From contig CAXXKM010000002.1 of NCBI GenBank assembly GCA_963664435.2, forward strand, positions 160,001 through 224,000: a stretch of 64,000 nt of DNA. The letters are read 5' to 3'. Made by a program: the position numbers and the translations under genes. The stretch comes from Longimicrobiales bacterium (GTDB taxonomy: Bacteria > Gemmatimonadota > Gemmatimonadetes > Longimicrobiales > Gaopeijiaceae). Within the stretch, counting starts at the first letter, position 1; each line of letters begins with the position of its first letter. Of the stretch, positions 49,140 through 57,723 are shown one piece after another. The notes below the pieces were generated by a model. The model was not told the DNA's origin. It saw only the letters and a list, made by a program, of their open reading frames with translations, and searched no databases.

Positions 49140-49397
49140 ATGACCGCTTCAAACATCGAACAGTTCGGACGCCGCATCCCGTTCACGATCGACGGGCAAC
49201 CCTTCACAACGGACGACCTCAGTCAGCGTGCCTCGGCGCTTCTTCGTCTGGCCGGCCTGGACCCTGCCACCTTTGACCTAGGAGAACTACAAGGCAAGGA
49301 GCGTCCGCAGACGAAGCGCTTCCGCGATGACGAGATCGTCTCCATCGTCAAGGATGCCCGGTTCATTACAATCCGCCAGAGCGCACCGGTGGCCTGA
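49140..49397 (+). CDS. Ubiquitin-like (beta-grasp, multi-ubiquitin family-like) protein
   Basis: FTIDGQPF...ALLRLAGLDP.TFDL...DDEIVSI...RFITI pattern; AGGAG RBS; first gene of an E2/JAB-E1 operon. Confidence 0.75.
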   Translation: MTASNIEQFGRRIPFTIDGQPFTTDDLSQRASALLRLAGLDPATFDLGELQGKERPQTKRFRDDEIVSIVKDARFITIRQSAPVA

Positions 49398-49744
49398 TGC
49401 AAACGGGTGTCGAAGCGTTCATGCGGGAGATGGCAGAGCTCGGCTTCGGGCCGACGCTCGAGGACGAGCTCGTCATCTACAAGCTAGCGGCGGTCGGCGG
49501 TGCCCACCCAGGAACATCGCTCGCAACTGGTGTCGGAGTTCACGAACTCCAGCCGTGGCCTCAGGCACCGCCGCACTGGCTTCACTTCTCAGCTGGCTTG
49601 AGGTTCACACGCACCAATAGCAGGCCGTCTCCGAAGTCTGGGTGGCTAATGCATAGCCGTCAGATAACGGGGTGGGGTGATGCCCCACCTGGAGTGGCGT
49701 GGGCAAGCCATGTCAGGGCGGTGCTTAGTGAGACGGTCGCGTGA
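49397..49744 (+). CDS. E2-like (UBC fold) protein lacking cysteine
   Basis: WPQAPPHWLH resembles the E2 (Y/F)P.xPP motif; GWLMHSR...W; lies between the Ubl and E1 genes with TGATG/GTGA coupling. Confidence 0.6.
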   Translation: MQTGVEAFMREMAELGFGPTLEDELVIYKLAAVGGAHPGTSLATGVGVHELQPWPQAPPHWLHFSAGLRFTRTNSRPSPKSGWLMHSRQITGWGDAPPGVAWASHVRAVLSETVA

Positions 49745-51246
49745 TGCGCCGAACATCAGTGGCCATGACGGCTGCGACCGAGGAGGCGCTTCTCCGCCAG
49801 ATTGTTCGCGACGACGGGCAAGAAGACCTTTGCCTCGCCACGTATCGGCCCTCCACCGGGCTGACCCGCTTCAGCGCCTTGGTCCGGGCGGTCGTCCGAC
49901 CCATGCCTGGGGATCGACTCGTCCATGGAAACGCCACTGTCACCGCCGATTACATCTTCAGGGCCGCGGAAGCGGCGCAGAAAGACAACTGCGGCGTAGT
50001 GCTACTCCACAGCCACCCCGGCGCCAGCAACTGGCAGCAAATGAGTGGTCCAGATCGCGAGTGCGAGGCCAGTTACGCCAACCTCGTGCGTGAGCTCACA
50101 GGACTTCCACTGGTTGGTATGACGCTGGCTACACGGAACCGCACCTGGTCGGCACGTCACTGGGACACCGGAGTCGGCCGAGCGGTCGATTGCACGCACT
50201 GCACGAACGTACGGGTAATCGGCGACAAGTTAGCGGTGTCTTGGAATGACGCAGTCCAACCACCTCCCCGGCCCAATGGCAGCCAGACCAGGACCGTTAG
50301 CGCTTGGGGCGAGCAGTGCCAAGCCGATCTCGTCCGGCGAAGAGTCCTTGTCGTGGGGACCGGTAGTGTCGGGCTCGATGTCTTCGTACGCCTCGCCGCA
50401 TCTGGGCTGTACCAGTTGACGGTGATGGATCACGACATCGTCGAAGTCCACAACCTGGACCGGCTTATAGGCGCGTCATCCCGCGATGCGCACCTGAGGC
50501 GGCCCAAGATTCACGTAGCCGTGCGGGAAGCCACGGCAGCAGCTACTGCGGACAGGTGCAGTATCCAGGCTTCGGACCGGTCCATCTGTGAACCGGAAGG
50601 GCTGCGGCTGGCACTCGATCATGACCTCATTTTCAGCTGCGTCGACAGGCCATGGCCACGAGCTGTACTCAATTCACTAGCGTACTCCGACCTCATCCCG
50701 GTTATCGATGGTGGCACGGCCATAGATACCTTCGACAGCGGGGAAATGCGCAATGCCACCTGGCGATCTCACGTCGTTAGACCGGGGCGTCCGTGCATGA
50801 GTTGCAATCGCCAGCTCCAACTCGGCGAAGTTGCTCTCGAGCGCCAAGGACTGCTCGATGATCCTGCTTACATCCAAGGCGTTGGAGAGGGACCGGCGTC
50901 AGTCAGCCCGAATGTGGCTCCGCTCTCTGCAAACGTTGCTGCGACCATCCTTGCTCAGTACGTCAGCTTCAGTGTGGCTCCTGCTGGCTTCGGCGATCCG
51001 GGCCCACTCCAGTACCTATTGAGCACTCACTGTCTCGAGCATCGCAGGGATGCGACAAGCCTACACTGCGCCGTTGAAGCTGACGAAGGTGTCGGCGATC
51101 ATCGCGTCTGCCTGACGGGCCTCCATGACGTCGCCGAACGACAACGACGACTCTCAAGGTCGGTAAGAACCCGCGTTCGTTGGCTCCGCTGGGTGGACGA
51201 TCGTACGCAATTCGTTACGAGGTGGTTGGACCGTGTCGTATCATGA
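49741..51246 (+). CDS. JAB/JAMM peptidase - ThiF/E1-like adenylyltransferase fusion
   Basis: N-terminal QED...HSHP-x8-SGPD (JAMM-like); C-terminal VLVVGTGSVG, DHDIVEVHNLDRL, RPKI, CVDRPWPR, IDGG, PCMSC. Confidence 0.88.
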   Translation: MMRRTSVAMTAATEEALLRQIVRDDGQEDLCLATYRPSTGLTRFSALVRAVVRPMPGDRLVHGNATVTADYIFRAAEAAQKDNCGVVLLHSHPGASNWQQMSGPDRECEASYANLVRELTGLPLVGMTLATRNRTWSARHWDTGVGRAVDCTHCTNVRVIGDKLAVSWNDAVQPPPRPNGSQTRTVSAWGEQCQADLVRRRVLVVGTGSVGLDVFVRLAASGLYQLTVMDHDIVEVHNLDRLIGASSRDAHLRRPKIHVAVREATAAATADRCSIQASDRSICEPEGLRLALDHDLIFSCVDRPWPRAVLNSLAYSDLIPVIDGGTAIDTFDSGEMRNATWRSHVVRPGRPCMSCNRQLQLGEVALERQGLLDDPAYIQGVGEGPASVSPNVAPLSANVAATILAQYVSFSVAPAGFGDPGPLQYLLSTHCLEHRRDATSLHCAVEADEGVGDHRVCLTGLHDVAERQRRLSRSVRTRVRWLRWVDDRTQFVTRWLDRVVS

Positions 51247-51414: not shown

Positions 51415-52137
51415 ATGGACTCACGCGCAATCGACTCCACCCACCCACTCCTGGCGGACAGGGAGCGTCTCGATGCGATCGCCGACGTCATGTACGCAAA
51501 GATCCAGAAGACTCTCTTTCCAGGGAATCCGGTACGGCGCCGCCGGGCACTGGCGAGTCAATCCAACGATACGGGCGAGGGAGAACGGATTCTGGAGGGG
51601 ACCGGAGTCAGCGCGGATGATGTTCTCTCCGAAGCGCTTGTCGGACTTCTTCAGTACCCACCAGCGCGCCTCAAGAGCACATGGGAGGGCTTGGCTGTCA
51701 CGATCGCCCGAAACAAGGCAACCAGCGCGTTGCGCGCTTCGGGGAAAGGCCTGAGAGGCACTGACCATCGACCCAAACTGCAACTGGTGTCGGGCGATGC
51801 CGAACGGGAAGGTCCGTCCGGTGAAACCCAGCCAACGCTCTTCGCATCACTTCCTAGCAACTGGGTTGATCCGGAAACCGAATACACTGTCACACAAGGT
51901 GCATTGAAGTTGCTCGACCTCGCCCGAGAGATCCTCGATGAACGAAACCAAGAGATCTTTCTTGCGATTCACTTCCGTGGCGAAAGTCGCAAGGAAGTCG
52001 GTGAACGACTTGGTTTGACCACCCAGCGGATCGGACAAATCTACAATGGCGCCCTGGGCATGCTGGAAGCCCGCCCTGATTATCCCTTCAAGCGTAGCGC
52101 ACGAGTCGACCGTATTGCAACAAAGGGAAGCCGATGA
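51415..52137 (+). CDS. Sigma-70 family (ECF-like) RNA polymerase sigma factor
   Basis: Region 2-like ADDVLSEAL...WEGLAVTIARNKATSALR; region 4 HTH LDERNQEIF...GESRKEVGERLGLTTQRIGQI. Confidence 0.8.
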   Translation: MDSRAIDSTHPLLADRERLDAIADVMYAKIQKTLFPGNPVRRRRALASQSNDTGEGERILEGTGVSADDVLSEALVGLLQYPPARLKSTWEGLAVTIARNKATSALRASGKGLRGTDHRPKLQLVSGDAEREGPSGETQPTLFASLPSNWVDPETEYTVTQGALKLLDLAREILDERNQEIFLAIHFRGESRKEVGERLGLTTQRIGQIYNGALGMLEARPDYPFKRSARVDRIATKGSR

Positions 52138-53033
52138 CCATTGAGCATGACGACCTTCGCAGATTCAAGGACTCCTACCTGGATTACCTTGAGGGCTACC
52201 GCGACGAGCCCCCCCGGCTCGAGAAGGTTTTATTAGAAGAGCGCGGAGCAGCTGCAGCGTTCATCGAATCGATTGCGGCGGCGCGCGGCATAGATCCCTA
52301 CGCTTCCAGACCGTCGATCGAGCAACTCCTGGCTCGGCGGCCCCAGACCAACGACAGCATTGCTGAACTCGGCGGCGTACTCCAGGAACATCTGCGATTC
52401 ACCGTTGATCCAGGCGCTTCGGTCACAGCGGACCTCGCTTCTGTTGCGGCCGGGCTGGCTTCTGTCTCGTTAATCCAAGCGCGTGGTATGCGTATCCGAG
52501 TAGTGCTGGAAGCAAATGCGGTGGACCTCGAATCCGCCATCGCCAGAAGAGCCCAACATATCGCCGACGTGTTCAGCGCCTTTCCCGACTCGCATGCGGT
52601 ACTCTACGCCACCACAGGGAGAGAATGTCTAGGAGTTGTGGTGGATCGGAGCGACGTCTACAGTGCCATCGAAACTCCCTCCGGCGAGAAACGGGCGCCT
52701 CGGCTGCAACGGTCGATCACCGACGCTGGAGTGGCATGCGAAGAGTGGCTAGCCGGCATGATCCCGAATTTTGAGCCCCTGAGCGCTGAACTCCTCGAAT
52801 CAGCTACTCATGAGTCGGCAGTAGATCCACTCCGCTTGGCAAGCGAGGCAGTACGGGAAGTTTCCATGGCCGGTGGACGAGCCAGGATAGGGGCCAAACG
52901 GGCCGCTTGGCGCGGCTTCGGGCTACAGGAGGCGCAACGTCTTGCTGCCATCCTTCGCGAAGCTGAACGCGGACAATTGTCAGAAGAGGTCTATAGGTCT
53001 CGCTTGGATGAATTGGTCAGGATAGCCGCATGA
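52134..53033 (+). CDS. Hypothetical protein, possible anti-sigma/partner protein
   Basis: ATGA-coupled on both sides; N-terminal SYLDYLEG helix resembles anti-sigma N-termini; no TM; no family recognised. Confidence 0.6.
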   Translation: MTIEHDDLRRFKDSYLDYLEGYRDEPPRLEKVLLEERGAAAAFIESIAAARGIDPYASRPSIEQLLARRPQTNDSIAELGGVLQEHLRFTVDPGASVTADLASVAAGLASVSLIQARGMRIRVVLEANAVDLESAIARRAQHIADVFSAFPDSHAVLYATTGRECLGVVVDRSDVYSAIETPSGEKRAPRLQRSITDAGVACEEWLAGMIPNFEPLSAELLESATHESAVDPLRLASEAVREVSMAGGRARIGAKRAAWRGFGLQEAQRLAAILREAERGQLSEEVYRSRLDELVRIAA

Positions 53034-54814
53034 TTCACAAAATACGCCTGCGAAACTGGCGATCCTACGAAGACCTCGACCTTCAGCTTGATCGGGGCAC
53101 GACATTTGTCGTGGCTCCCAACGGCGTGGGGAAAACGTCACTCGTGTACGGCCTCGCATGGGGTGTGTTTGGGCAACATAGCAGGGTCGACCCAAAAACC
53201 TGCATACGGGCGGCGGCGGCGAGTGCGGAAGTCGAGGTCGAGGTGGGTTTTCCCGACGGACGCCGGCTCACCATCAGACGAACTGCAAAGCGGCGAGGTG
53301 CTCCTACCGCTACATACGAAATGGGTGGGGCGAGGCTAACCGAGGGTGCAGCCCTGGCGAAAATGACGGAGGGATTTGGGATAGAACTCCCCGTGGCTGG
53401 TCGTTTGGCGATGATGCTGGGCGGGGGACACATCGAAGCTAGTCGCACTCTGAACCTCGAAGGCCACCTACATCATGCTTTCGGAGTTGCTCACCTTCTG
53501 GGTGCAGCCGAGACTGCACGGTCTGTTGCCAAGGAGGCTCAGAAGGCGCGAGCGGCCCTCCGGTTGACGACCAAGCAACGAATGGACAATCGCGCCGCAC
53601 TCGAGAGTGAGATCGCCCGTCTCGAATCAGAGATCAGCCAACTCACGCACCGTGGTGCCGACCTTGAGCGAATGCGGGACGCTGCTGCTATTCAAAGGTC
53701 GTTGGTCGAGCGGCACCTGGCGCTCGCGAATCAGTTCGAACGGTATGAGGGGCAACGCTCGCGCCTACTCGGCACGATCCAGGACCTGCTCGGCCGACGG
53801 GTCTCCCACGACAGCGACGAGTTAGTCCGTTCCGAGCTGCGGAGTGAGTTGGAAGCATCTGAACGCCGAATTCTCCAACTGACCGAGGGTGCTGTGTCGG
53901 CACGTTCTGCTATATCCGCTTCCAAACAGGCCGTTCGGTTGCTCGACGAACAACAGGCGACCTGTCCCACTTGCAGGCGTCCTCTTCCTCATCAGGAGTG
54001 GACCGCAGCGATATCTGCTCACAGGAGACAACAGGAAAAAGCAGAAGCGGAGGTAGAACGCCTTGAAGAGGCTCGCAGGGTGAGACAGACACACGCACTC
54101 ACGGTTTCTCGGGTGCTGGCCCGGCTAGAAGCGCTCCGGCCTCCTCGCATCCTCGTTGAGGACGACAGTCTCCCCACCCCTGCTGATGCTGACGCCCTGT
54201 ACCAACAGGCTAATGCTGATCTCGATGAACACAACCGGCGGCTTGGTGGAGTGCGTTCTCGTCTGGAATCTCTACGGACCAAGGTTGCTTCGGATGACCG
54301 GCTTCAGCAGGAGGAGCGAAGTCTTCGGTTGGCCTATCGGAGAGAGGCTGCCGCCCTTGCGGGAGAAAGGGTGTTGCGAGGGGCTGCTGATCACGTGATC
54401 GAGTCTCGCATCAAGCCGATGGCGAACGAGCTGCGAGGACGCTGGAAGCACCTGTTCACAAGCAATGGCCTCATCTTTAGGCCTGATGGGTCGATTACCA
54501 GGTTTCGGGCCGGGGAGGAGCTAGGATGGGATACGCTAAGCGGCGGTGAACAGACGTGGGCCAGAATCGTCACCCACTTGATCGTATTGAGTACTACGAC
54601 ATCCCTTCCCTTCGCATGGTTTGACGAACCGCTCGAACACCTTGACCCGCAGTTGCGTCATGCTGTCGCAGCAACCCTCGCCACAGCCACCGCTGGAGGT
54701 TCTCCCCGTCAACTCCTAGTTACGACCTACGAACACGCCATCGCGCAGCAGTTGGCTGATGACACGGATGGTGCTGGAATCATAGCCATACGGGAGTCCG
54801 GTGCCTCGCCATAG
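53030..54814 (+). CDS. Short Rad50/SbcC/SMC-like ABC ATPase with zinc hook
   Basis: IRLRNWRSY, Walker A APNGVGKTS, coiled coils, central CPTC, signature LSGGE, Walker B/D-loop WFDEPLEHLD. Confidence 0.9.
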   Translation: MIHKIRLRNWRSYEDLDLQLDRGTTFVVAPNGVGKTSLVYGLAWGVFGQHSRVDPKTCIRAAAASAEVEVEVGFPDGRRLTIRRTAKRRGAPTATYEMGGARLTEGAALAKMTEGFGIELPVAGRLAMMLGGGHIEASRTLNLEGHLHHAFGVAHLLGAAETARSVAKEAQKARAALRLTTKQRMDNRAALESEIARLESEISQLTHRGADLERMRDAAAIQRSLVERHLALANQFERYEGQRSRLLGTIQDLLGRRVSHDSDELVRSELRSELEASERRILQLTEGAVSARSAISASKQAVRLLDEQQATCPTCRRPLPHQEWTAAISAHRRQQEKAEAEVERLEEARRVRQTHALTVSRVLARLEALRPPRILVEDDSLPTPADADALYQQANADLDEHNRRLGGVRSRLESLRTKVASDDRLQQEERSLRLAYRREAAALAGERVLRGAADHVIESRIKPMANELRGRWKHLFTSNGLIFRPDGSITRFRAGEELGWDTLSGGEQTWARIVTHLIVLSTTTSLPFAWFDEPLEHLDPQLRHAVAATLATATAGGSPRQLLVTTYEHAIAQQLADDTDGAGIIAIRESGASP

Positions 54815-54920: not shown

Positions 54921-56300
54921 CTATTCTTGCTCTCCCGAGCGGCGCGCGATTTTGGCCATCAGGGCTTCGACTATCGCGTTCACTGTAGGGTCGTCTTCCA
55001 AGTCCCAGGACGCGAGTTCCGAATACCGAACATGTTGGATTGACAATGGGATGGGCTTCCCTTCAATGTGGGCCAAGAACGCGACTCTTCTGCCGTCCAG
55101 CACCCAGACCAGAGACAGCGCAACCGAAAACCCTCGGATTCCGCGTCCCGTGTAGCCCTTCCAATGGTAGTCTCTACGCAGCTCGATCTGCTGCTGGTCG
55201 CTCAACCGAAATCCCGGCGTCACCAAGCCCAGTTTGGTCTCTTCCCAATGTTCAATCTGGAGCAGGCTCCACGACCGCCTTACCGCGCGTTGCCCTACCG
55301 CCGCGTAGGACTCCCAAGTGCTTCCACTAAACAATCGACCTAACGATTCAAGCGCTCTATCCGCGCGGTCCAACGTCGGATTAACCCATCGCTGGAAAAC
55401 ATTATCCAGCACTTCGACATCCGCCACTCGCGGTTCACCACCCAAGTTCCGCCGGACGAAGAGTTCGACTTCCTTTTCGGCATCCCCGGCTTCGCGGATC
55501 GACTCTCCCTTCGCGACGCGAACCGCCAAGCCGATGGACCAAAAGACATTCTCAAGCATGAACCCTGCAAGCGGCTCCATCCGGCCCACATCGGCGTTCT
55601 GAAGCGCCCCGATATATCGGTCCCGCTCGGCGCTCTTGATCACCATCGGAGGCAAACCGGACCTCAGCAGGACGTAGTTGGTGAGCAGCCGCGCCGTACG
55701 TCCGTTTCCATCATCGAACGGATGAATCCGGAGGAAGCTCCAATGCGACTTGGCCAGGAAGAGGGGTAGGGGATCTGCGGTGCGCGCGAGATCCCGCTGG
55801 AAGTCCCGCGTCCAACGTTCCATCAACGCCGGCGTCTCCTCCGGCTCCGCGAATCGATGTAGTTCTCCGGTCGCAGTTCGCACGTGGTTCGGCTGCGTCT
55901 TGTACTCTCCCGGAACGATCCGCTTCCGGGTCTGCTGCCCGTCCGGAGTCTGCGCGATGTGCCAGAATGGCTCCTTCAGGAGAATCTTGTTCAGATCCCG
56001 GATGTCGCCCTCACCCAGAACGCGCTCGGCACTCGCCAGACTGCGCGTGTGGTCGATCGCTACATCGTGCGCCTTCATCTCCTCGTAGTGCCGCATCGGA
56101 TGCTCGCCAGCCGTTCGGCCATGGATGAGCAGCAGCTCGGTCTCGTGATAGGTGAGGGTGTTTCCCTCAATGTGATTGCTGTTGTAGTTCCACTCGAGGC
56201 GCAGCTTCCTCCACAGCCGCTCGTCATCTTCCTCACGCATGGTTGCCCGGCGTTCCCGCCATTCCGAGATCGCCGCCGCCAATGCCTCCGAGTCCATCAT
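54921..56300 (-). CDS. Fic-domain protein (class II-like) with unknown C-terminal domain
   Basis: HPFDDGNGRTAR Fic motif; N-terminal inhibitory motif SNHIEGN. Start approximate (56312/56300/56297). Confidence 0.92.
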   Translation of the reverse strand: MMDSEALAAAISEWRERRATMREEDDERLWRKLRLEWNYNSNHIEGNTLTYHETELLLIHGRTAGEHPMRHYEEMKAHDVAIDHTRSLASAERVLGEGDIRDLNKILLKEPFWHIAQTPDGQQTRKRIVPGEYKTQPNHVRTATGELHRFAEPEETPALMERWTRDFQRDLARTADPLPLFLAKSHWSFLRIHPFDDGNGRTARLLTNYVLLRSGLPPMVIKSAERDRYIGALQNADVGRMEPLAGFMLENVFWSIGLAVRVAKGESIREAGDAEKEVELFVRRNLGGEPRVADVEVLDNVFQRWVNPTLDRADRALESLGRLFSGSTWESYAAVGQRAVRRSWSLLQIEHWEETKLGLVTPGFRLSDQQQIELRRDYHWKGYTGRGIRGFSVALSLVWVLDGRRVAFLAHIEGKPIPLSIQHVRYSELASWDLEDDPTVNAIVEALMAKIARRSGEQE

Positions 56301-56409
56301 TCTCCCCTGCATGTTCCGCTGGCACCTGCCCGCCAGGCTCGTAGACCGTAGACCGTAAGGTATCGCGATGTCTCAACCTGGCCGCACGGGTTCCACGCCC
56401 TGCACCCCT

Positions 56410-57687
56410 TCACGGCCCCAAAACCCCCACCGGTATGACCCCCACGCCATCCGGCCGCTGGTAGCCATATCCGCTGCCGACGATGACGGCGAGTGCTGCC
56501 GGTTCACCGCTACCGGTCGTGTCCACACGATTCCCGAACTTGAGAAGCGCGGCTGCCGCTTCGTCGATTCGTCCCTGGCCCAGCGTCACTTCGAACGCGG
56601 CCCATCGGCCGGGACCGGCATCCACGATCGCGTCCACTTCGAGGCCCGTGTTGTCACGATAGTGGTATACGCGCCCGCCCATCGCCTGAGCGTACACGCG
56701 CAGGTCTCGAACGACCATGGACTCGAAGAGAAAACCGAACCACGGGATGTCCTTCATGAGGTTCCCGGGTCCGGCATTCAGCGCCGCCGTCGCGAGGGAT
56801 GGATCCGTGAAGTGTCGTTTCGGGGAGCGTCTGAGGCGTGATCGGGACCGAAGATGAGGGGCCCACGGTGGCTGCTGCTCAACCACCATGAGGCGTTCGA
56901 GCGCTGCGAGGTAGGAACGGGCAGTCTCCTTCGTGAGCGAATGGTCGGTGCCGCCTGCATCTCTCGCCATGGTCGCGACCGACGTGCAGGTAGCCGTGTT
57001 TCGCGCCAGCGTCTGGAGGAACCGGCCAACTCTCTCCGGATCCCTCACGATCCCGTCCACCCGCCTGATGTCCACCCGGCGGATTTCGTCCAGGTAGTCG
57101 CGGTTGGCCAGCAATGCGCCTTCCTCGGCCTTCCGGCGAAAATGCCCGGGCCAGCCACCGACGCAAATCAGCGTGGCCAAGTCCCGAAGGGGCAGGTCGT
57201 GAACCAGGCTGGGTACGGGCTCTCCGTCGAGGATTCGCTTCAAGGAGACCTGTCCCGTTGCGCGCCCGAGCTCGAACAGCGACATGGGACGGAGCCGAAG
57301 GCGGCTCATCCGGCCGGCTCCCGTATGCCGCGGGATGTCATCGGGTGGAACGGCTGAGCCGGTGAGGATGAAGTGGCCCAAGCCCGGGCGATCATCGACG
57401 GCGCGTCGCACGTAGTTCCAGATGTCGGGCTCGGCCTGCCACTCATCGATCAATCGCGGAGTCGCTCCTTCCAGGAGCAACCTCGGGTCGACAGCCATGG
57501 TCTGGGGCACGGCCGGATCGGCATCCATGAGCACTTCGCTCGCCGCCGCCTGCCGGGCCGTCGTGGTCTTGCCGCAGACCCTCGGCCCCTCGATCACGAC
57601 AGCTCCCGCTGCCGCGAGCCTTTCGGTCAATTCACGGTCAGCAATGCGGGGACGATAGCCTGACACGGATGTGGGATCGGGTGTCAT
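56410..57687 (-). CDS. AAA+ ATPase (AAA_14) with DUF4143 domain
   Basis: YRPRIAD, EGPRVCGKTT, LIDEWQ, FILTGS, HTGAGR, GGWP, GFLFES, EVDAIV. Start ATG 57687. Confidence 0.9.
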   Translation of the reverse strand: MTPDPTSVSGYRPRIADRELTERLAAAGAVVIEGPRVCGKTTTARQAAASEVLMDADPAVPQTMAVDPRLLLEGATPRLIDEWQAEPDIWNYVRRAVDDRPGLGHFILTGSAVPPDDIPRHTGAGRMSRLRLRPMSLFELGRATGQVSLKRILDGEPVPSLVHDLPLRDLATLICVGGWPGHFRRKAEEGALLANRDYLDEIRRVDIRRVDGIVRDPERVGRFLQTLARNTATCTSVATMARDAGGTDHSLTKETARSYLAALERLMVVEQQPPWAPHLRSRSRLRRSPKRHFTDPSLATAALNAGPGNLMKDIPWFGFLFESMVVRDLRVYAQAMGGRVYHYRDNTGLEVDAIVDAGPGRWAAFEVTLGQGRIDEAAAALLKFGNRVDTTGSGEPAALAVIVGSGYGYQRPDGVGVIPVGVLGP

Positions 57688-57694
57688 GTAGGGG

Positions 57695-57723
57695 AGTATG
57701 GCAGATCGAGCGTGGTTTTGCAA
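57695..57723 (-). promoter_or_regulatory. Sigma70-type promoter of the AAA-DUF4143 gene, probably leaderless
   Basis: Minus strand TTGCAA, 17-bp spacer, TGn-CATACT; ATG lies 7 nt after the -10; no SD. Confidence 0.6.

Follow-up and report, generated by a model that had tools for sequence, protein, structure and literature searches.

The 115-aa protein encoded between a ubiquitin-like (Ubl) gene and an E1 gene in this window (the whole stretch of 64,000 nucleotides analysed here) is probably a working serine-based E2. Our preferred reading, which we hold at about 80%, is that it acts in a Cys-free, Bub-type oxyester cascade whose tag ends in Ala and which has no BubE. That Ser87 is the nucleophile of this E2 is the firmest part and can be regarded as very probable. 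By homology of the three genes, the cassette is of the same lineage as the known Bub systems. It falls outside Type I and Type II as they are defined, because BubE, a Gly end and a helper pair were looked for and are not found. The chemistry itself is not new here: oxyester formation by a Ser-E2 is already published and defines Bub. The features are collected in Table 1.

Table 1. Positions of the cassette, its candidate active-site codons and the neighbouring island genes in the window.
Feature	Position	Strand	Basis
Stand-alone single beta-grasp Ubl (BubA-like, 85 aa), end ...SAPVA, tail without Gly	49140..49397	+	VIA-align matches, C-terminal register
Cys-free UBC-fold E2 (BubB-like, Prok-E2_E-related), 115 aa	49397..49744	+	ORF translation, model, profiles
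E2 motif WPxxPPHWxH, with candidate general base(s)	49556..49585	+	Alignment, profile
E2 His60, at the BubB Asp299 position	49574..49576	+	Profile alignment
E2 His63, invariant	49583..49585	+	A2 alignment
E2 Ser87 codon AGC, candidate nucleophile, corresponds to BubB S333	49655..49657	+	Conservation, profile alignment
JAB peptidase-E1 fusion (BubCD-like, 501 aa)	49741..51246	+	PDB match; ThiF and weak Prok-JAB Pfam matches; conservation
E1 Tyr377 codon in the crossover loop, corresponds to BubCD Y370	50869..50871	+	PDB alignment, conservation
ECF-type sigma-70 factor	51415..52137	+	TIGR02937 above cut-off
299-aa protein, possible anti-sigma factor or sensor	52134..53033	+	Co-occurrence
SMC/Rad50-like ATPase with zinc hook	53030..54814	+	Pfam SMC_N
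Fic-domain protein (PADLOC PDC-S04/SoFic-like), closes the island	54921..56312	-	PADLOC/Pfam
AAA_14 and DUF4143 protein (PDC-S01-like), closes the island	56410..57723	-	PADLOC/Pfam

The original prediction described a protein of 115 aa without Cys, carrying WPxxPP and lying between the Ubl and E1 genes, with Ser87 encoded by AGC within GWLMHSR. Translation and the order of the ORFs agree with all of this: WPQAPP corresponds to residues 54–59, and GWLMHSR to residues 82–88. The ORF list shows that the three genes overlap. The E2 start shares TGATG at 49395–49399 with the Ubl stop, and the E2 end overlaps the GTG start of JAB-E1 at 49741. That the TGATG junction reflects a frameshift or an assembly error was considered and rejected, since the split is common to 39/39 loci and contigs cross it without indels. 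Contigs from 3/3 public runs cover the Ser87 codon with no differing letters; one of the runs matching this stretch is labelled as a sponge metagenome, and one may be the window's own source. No RNA data set for the stretch is present among the public sequencing runs listed. The separation of Ubl and E2 genes was considered as a novelty and dropped, as split BubA/BubB are already seen in at least 31 rows of Table S1 of Ye et al. (PMC11601596).

The search for E2 homologues yielded 127 matches among 135 candidates at E ≤ 0.001. The close-homologue alignment has 121 rows (the query and 120 listed homologues, 55–91% identity). Besides Ser87, its invariant residues are W54, P59, H60, W61, N74, W83, H86, R88, W93, and H105. 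Cys is absent from 85/121 of these rows, and no column contains Cys in more than 7/121. Among 104 unique E2s collected from loci, 38 have no Cys, and the commonest Cys column (21/104) is far from the active site. The absence of Cys is a family trait, though it is uninformative by itself in a protein of 115 aa.

A profile search of representatives at 50% identity gave 92 matches. The resulting alignment, A2, contains 41 rows (the query, 33 near-full-length representatives, and 7 closer homologues) and reaches down to 25% identity. It leaves out 59 representatives that are fragments, fusions, apparent frameshifts or false matches to repeat proteins. In A2, H63 and S87 are the only invariant columns, while H60 and R88 are conserved in at least 90%. 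Distant members have W, Y or M where the query has H86, and His86 is therefore probably not a general base. Five of the 59 omitted representatives (P0127, P0162, P0178, P0182, and P0194) cover the site without Ser; most of them seem frameshifted at the protein level, and P0162 has HAR.

A less biased set consists of 80 metagenome loci seeded on PPHWxH and 4 profile matches, which become 71 after removal of 12 duplicates and 1 unscored locus. R88 is present in 71/71 and H86 in 70/71 of them, and position 89, the +2 position from Ser87, is His in 0/71. The seed itself requires H60 and H63, so that their conservation is uncountable in those seeded loci. The Ser87 codon belongs to AGY in 41 and to TCN in 55 of 96 unique genes. 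The use of both codon families indicates that selection acts on the residue itself.

The AlphaFold2 model of E2 (pLDDT 92.8) consists of a helix, a beta-meander, and one C-terminal helix. Its top VIA-align match among 48,161 chains is Citrobacter BubB (9eav_D; Z 7.5, rmsd 3.8 over 111), although ranks 1 and 2 are tied and this Z is in the range that the tool calls common (<8, weak alone). Below BubB are the Tsg101 UEV domain (6.8) and E2 enzymes, and nearly all of the list are UBC, UEV or RWD folds. Foldseek returns no match at E ≤ 0.001 with this model; its weak rows include E2s, and BubB is at rank 14. The model stops after one C-terminal helix, and so represents a diverged UBC fold without the C-terminal helix pair, which is a trait of BubB. 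Neither E2 nor Ubl matches any family of Pfam, NCBIfam or PADLOC, and neither has a significant PDB match by sequence or profile. Prok-E2_E is matched by 4/41 members of A2, and a score of 0.91 is obtained with an Atlas cluster of which 45% is Prok-E2_E.

The Type I BubB profile was built from the E2 of Oscillatoria PCC 7112, together with 55 of its relatives in the database and the E2 halves of two plasmid BubABs. Oscillatoria PCC 7112 is among the species listed by Ye et al. (bioRxiv 10.1101/2024.11.21.623953, the preprint of PMC11601596). In hhalign, A2 matches this profile at 93.1% (E 3.2e-7). The Ser in the profile's W-S-R-H is paired with S87, the His of the same motif with Q89, and the Asp in P-P-D with H60. 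As counted in Table S2 of Ye et al., these BubB positions are S333, H335, and D299 of Citrobacter. The close-homologue profile alone reaches 2.6% in the same register. The placement of Ser87 at the catalytic-Ser position thus comes from profile alignment, not from atomic superposition. Citrobacter BubB and BubCD were compared through PDB search output, Table S2 by eye, and database relatives, not as rows of the alignments or the tree. Complex prediction with the E1 domain dimer and E2 scored 0.00, which gives no answer either way.

These results bear out the central proposal of the original prediction, that Ser87 is a candidate oxyester nucleophile: it is invariant and falls on the Ser that is catalytic in Type I BubB. 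The UBC-like fold that it expected is predicted, with BubB on top in VIA-align. The conservation of Ser87 that it expected is seen in the query and all listed close homologues (121/121), and also in 71/71 loci whose selection did not involve Ser87. The oxyester intermediates of Bub-type pathways, which it named, are in print. In the portions of Ye et al. (PMC11601596) available to us, both the E1 Tyr and the E2 Ser are required for conjugation, which is abolished by Y370F or S333A/H335A.

JAB-E1 has Citrobacter BubCD as its best PDB match (E 3.4e-19), with Y377 aligned on Y370. This Tyr is kept in 38/38, 40/40, and 52/52 E1s, the first two sets overlapping. The JAB site (E28, H90, H92, and D105) is intact, and all four residues are present in 37/37 rows covering them, where one split E1 was entered by its C-terminal half and one locus was omitted. 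The JAB-E1 gene is split in 2/38 genome loci (L018 and L024).

The Ubl model finds bacterial multi-ubiquitin or BubA chains as its top four VIA-align matches (Z 11.2–8.6). Against 9d5b, Z is 11.2 with rmsd 2.2 over 78. Against 9eav_C, Z is 8.6, and the aligned range ends at residue 85 against 75, which is G229. Ala is the last Ubl residue in 38/39 genome loci. Among 94 unique tags, 93 end at position +10 from the Phe of the last strand (85 Ala, 7 Glu, and 1 Val), and the remaining one (VAKQ, L084) is two residues longer. None of the 94 ends in Gly, whereas Type I reference tags have Gly at the same Phe+10 in 3/3. More distant Ubl relatives end in VA, VS or VV. The Glu (7/94) and Val (1/94) ends are odd for an adenylation pocket.

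Glu-ended tags (SAPVE) are seen at L037 and at six metagenome loci (L112, L114, L128, L149, L152, and L158). These six pair with E2s having HSRP(P/A); a single lineage may account for all of them, so that the pairing does not establish covariation.

Could Ser87 be structural, in a catalytically dead UBC/RWD-like adaptor that binds only E1 or a target? E2-like domains of this operon class were read as inactive by Iyer et al. 2006 (PMC1779556, accessible portion), and the His/Asp helpers of Type I are missing here. However, the exact catalytic position holds an invariant Ser despite the switching of codon families, the partner E1 retains the matching Tyr, and the homologous Ser is essential in both Bub types in the available text of Ye et al. 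(PMC11601596). A dead adaptor is thus very unlikely. The same low probability applies to a mixed cascade. There, an E1 Cys (C443 or C300) would form a thioester of the sort used by Bil or ThiF-type sulfur transfer, with the tag then passing to Ser87 or E2 being bypassed. C352, C355, and C443 are indeed invariant in 40/40 E1s and C300 in 38/38. However, C352 and C355 form a CxxC before the crossover loop, and together with C443 (and H430) they are a putative Zn site. In distant members, the C443 site reads CxxxC or CxxC, which we take to match the Zn-site pattern of ThiF/MoeB. C300 lies within a core strand common to BubCD (FCCVD), and the loop after C355 contains Tyr377 and no Cys.

The cascade could also be the same oxyester cascade with the tag made as a precursor, JAB trimming the last residue(s) so that Ala85 is not the conjugated end. 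This is unlikely as well, if slightly less so. It would account for an intact JAB site without a fused precursor and for the variable last residue (A, E or V, and one VAKQ). In Type II Bil, the terminal Ala98 after Gly97 blocks adenylation until it is removed, according to the consulted part of PMC10557695. Two rare, natural-looking Ubl-E2 fusions (P0124 and P0192), in which a short linker comes after the VA motif, point in the same direction. Nevertheless, there is no Gly to expose here: the last four residues are free of Gly in 79/93 tags of standard register. Ala85 takes the Phe+10 place of the reactive Gly of Type I and, judged from the range ends, sits structurally on G229. The fusions and the VA-KQ tag are equally consistent with cutting after the same Ala, and they suggest that JAB may cut there.

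With a Ser-based oxyester cascade as the preferred reading, the pathway can be sketched as follows. By homology to the Citrobacter and E. coli systems, which have been characterised biochemically, the JAB-E1 dimer would adenylate the free C-terminal Ala85 of Ubl, and no trimming would be needed. Tyr377 of E1 would receive the tag as an oxyester. The tag would then move to Ser87 of E2, activated by His60 and/or His63 instead of the His/Asp pair of Type I. The role of His60 as base is hypothetical, because the match to the Type II profile is 6%; His63 is the other candidate. E2 would discharge the tag onto target lysines without an E3, as homologous systems suggest. As there is neither BubE nor a precursor to cut, tag removal most likely falls to the intact JAB domain.

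According to the consulted part of Ye et al. (PMC11601596), BubE is present in all catalogued Bub operons, which were collected by DUF6527. DUF6527/BubE is not found in the own genome of the window, which is 96% complete. It is also seen in 0/75 loci where E1 is complete and the sequence downstream spans at least 1.5 kb, a subset, not dereplicated, of 101 loci with E1. As a positive control, the same local BubE model is positive beside 4/4 Type I plasmid loci, one of them unannotated. BubE acting in trans was considered and rejected: the own genome has none, and 0 of the 10 matches examined in relatives, out of 13, overlap cassette loci. BubE is present elsewhere in 10/38 related genomes, and several of these matches are parts of separate Type II operons.

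In a quick IQ-TREE run of 80 E1s with a midpoint root, 70 rows from loci of the BubE-less type form one branch (SH-aLRT 99, length 1.31). This branch is apart from 5 BubE-linked rows and 4 rows of unknown BubE status, and a long haloarchaeal branch lies between. The role of BubE as a defining Bub feature is partly an artefact of the DUF6527-based catalogue. These facts indicate that a catalogue anchored on DUF6527 misses a branch spread over many phyla. A full-text literature search, limited mainly to freely accessible papers, found no Bub branch that lacks BubE or has a tag ending in Ala. The accessible text of Gong et al. (10.1101/2024.11.21.623966) contains no mention of alanine.

The genome of the window contains a second, diverged BubE-less cassette (G000:C1:737000-739500; L066:4150-6572, minus strand). 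Its tag ends in PKGVS, its E2 has PHVH...WSRP and matches Prok-E2_E over the cut-off, its JAB-E1 has DDPTY, and an ImmA-like gene is upstream. On the Salinirubellus plasmid NZ_CP104004.1 (L061), a cassette of Ubl (end GSGRS), E2-like protein (PHW...WSH), and JAB-E1 adjoins a Piwi-domain gene. Such E1s are seen on several haloarchaeal plasmids. Viral contigs gave 3 pattern matches and 0 relatives.

The cassette begins directly after a transketolase gene, where GC drops from 0.73 to about 0.60 for 7 kb. It is patchy in relatives (7/41 genomes), and it occurs in many phyla and on plasmids. These facts indicate that it is mobile. Homologues of the downstream genes are seen among 126 loci: the sigma factor in 40, the 299-aa protein in 49, and the SMC ATPase in 36, although many metagenome loci are short and end before any neighbouring genes. 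The three genes are mostly located upstream in divergent orientation; here and at L020 and L097, they are downstream on the same strand. The 299-aa protein has no match in Pfam, NCBIfam or PADLOC, and its cluster includes plasmid proteins annotated as ImmA/IrrE. Pairs of HTH and ImmA/IrrE genes are seen at other loci. A complete Type II Bub operon (TDKS, E2-E1, and BubE; L071:3358-7695, G028:C8) has a homologue of the same SMC ATPase directly upstream. This ATPase may thus go along with different types of Bub system.

The likely role of the cassette is in a regulated stress or anti-phage response of the mobile island. The defence part would follow from the genomic context and from a suggestion in the consulted part of Ye et al. 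(PMC11601596). It can be speculated, only tentatively, that this is a third type of Bub. Such a type would be a minimal oxyester cascade with an Ala tag (Glu or Val in some lineages), a Ser-His site in E2, and JAB as the sole true deconjugase. It would be wired to its own module of ECF sigma factor, 299-aa sensor, and SMC ATPase, which may serve as its sensor or even its target. If so, ubiquitin-like ligation can proceed without Cys and without Gly at the tag's end, and a Bub pathway is placed in a transcription or DNA-sensing circuit.

The branch makes three questions on Bub testable with a set of just three genes. One is which residues activate the Ser of E2, as it has His at the Asp position and no +2 helper. 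Another is whether E1 accepts C-termini bearing side chains (Ala, even Glu). A third is deconjugation by the JAB domain of BubC, which Ye et al. (PMC11601596, consulted part) suggested might only mature the precursor; here, JAB is conserved with neither precursor nor BubE.

Comparison with known systems places the cassette nearest to Bub. In Type I Bub (6E.1; BubAB/BubCD/BubE of Citrobacter sp. RHBSTW-00271, with structures 9EA4, 9EAE, and 9EAV in PDB; Ye et al., bioRxiv 10.1101/2024.11.21.623953), the gene order Ubl-E2-JAB:E1 is the same as here. The UBC-fold E2 with a catalytic Ser, the E1 with a crossover-loop Tyr, and the intact JAB are also shared, and regulators of the ImmA/HTH kind are near many loci in both. 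The Ser of E2 is accompanied by His and Asp in Type I and by Lys and His in Type II, according to the accessible text of Ye et al. (PMC11601596). Type I has BubE, the Asp299/His335 helpers, and a tag ending in Gly, whereas the branch described here has no BubE, has His60 at the Asp position and no +2 His, and has a tag ending in Ala. Its E1s are on a separate long branch, and the sigma, 299-aa protein, and SMC module is often along.

Type II Bub (6E.2; BubA/BubBD/BubE of E. coli ZDHYS365) shares the Ser E2, the Tyr E1, and a tag end other than Gly. By eye, an invariant His in six Type II E2 domains is at about the His60 position, although the profile match is 5–6% only. In contrast to the cassette here, which has a separate E2, a JAB-E1, and no BubE, Type II has an E2-E1 fusion, no JAB, and BubE. 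Type II also has Lys at +2, and here there is no Lys at that position. In the consulted part of Ye et al. (PMC11601596), S106A abolishes Type II conjugation, the +2 helper K108 can be dispensed with, and TDKS forms the end of the tag. These facts indicate that conjugation can do without a +2 helper and without a Gly end.

The Bil systems of Types I and II (BilABCD; Chambers et al., PMC10557695, accessible part) resemble the cassette in having separate Ubl and E2 and no E3. They differ in using Cys thioesters (E1 C417 and E2 C138), a Gly-ended tag, and separate genes for JAB and E1. Prok-E2_E (PF14462) and canonical UBC E2s share the fold and a YPxxPP-like motif, and distant members of the family match PF14462, while the Pfam model does not detect the query. 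The catalytic Cys of Bil and canonical E2s is seen in neither the E2 nor the E1 of the cassette, which has Ser87 and Tyr377 at the Bub positions.
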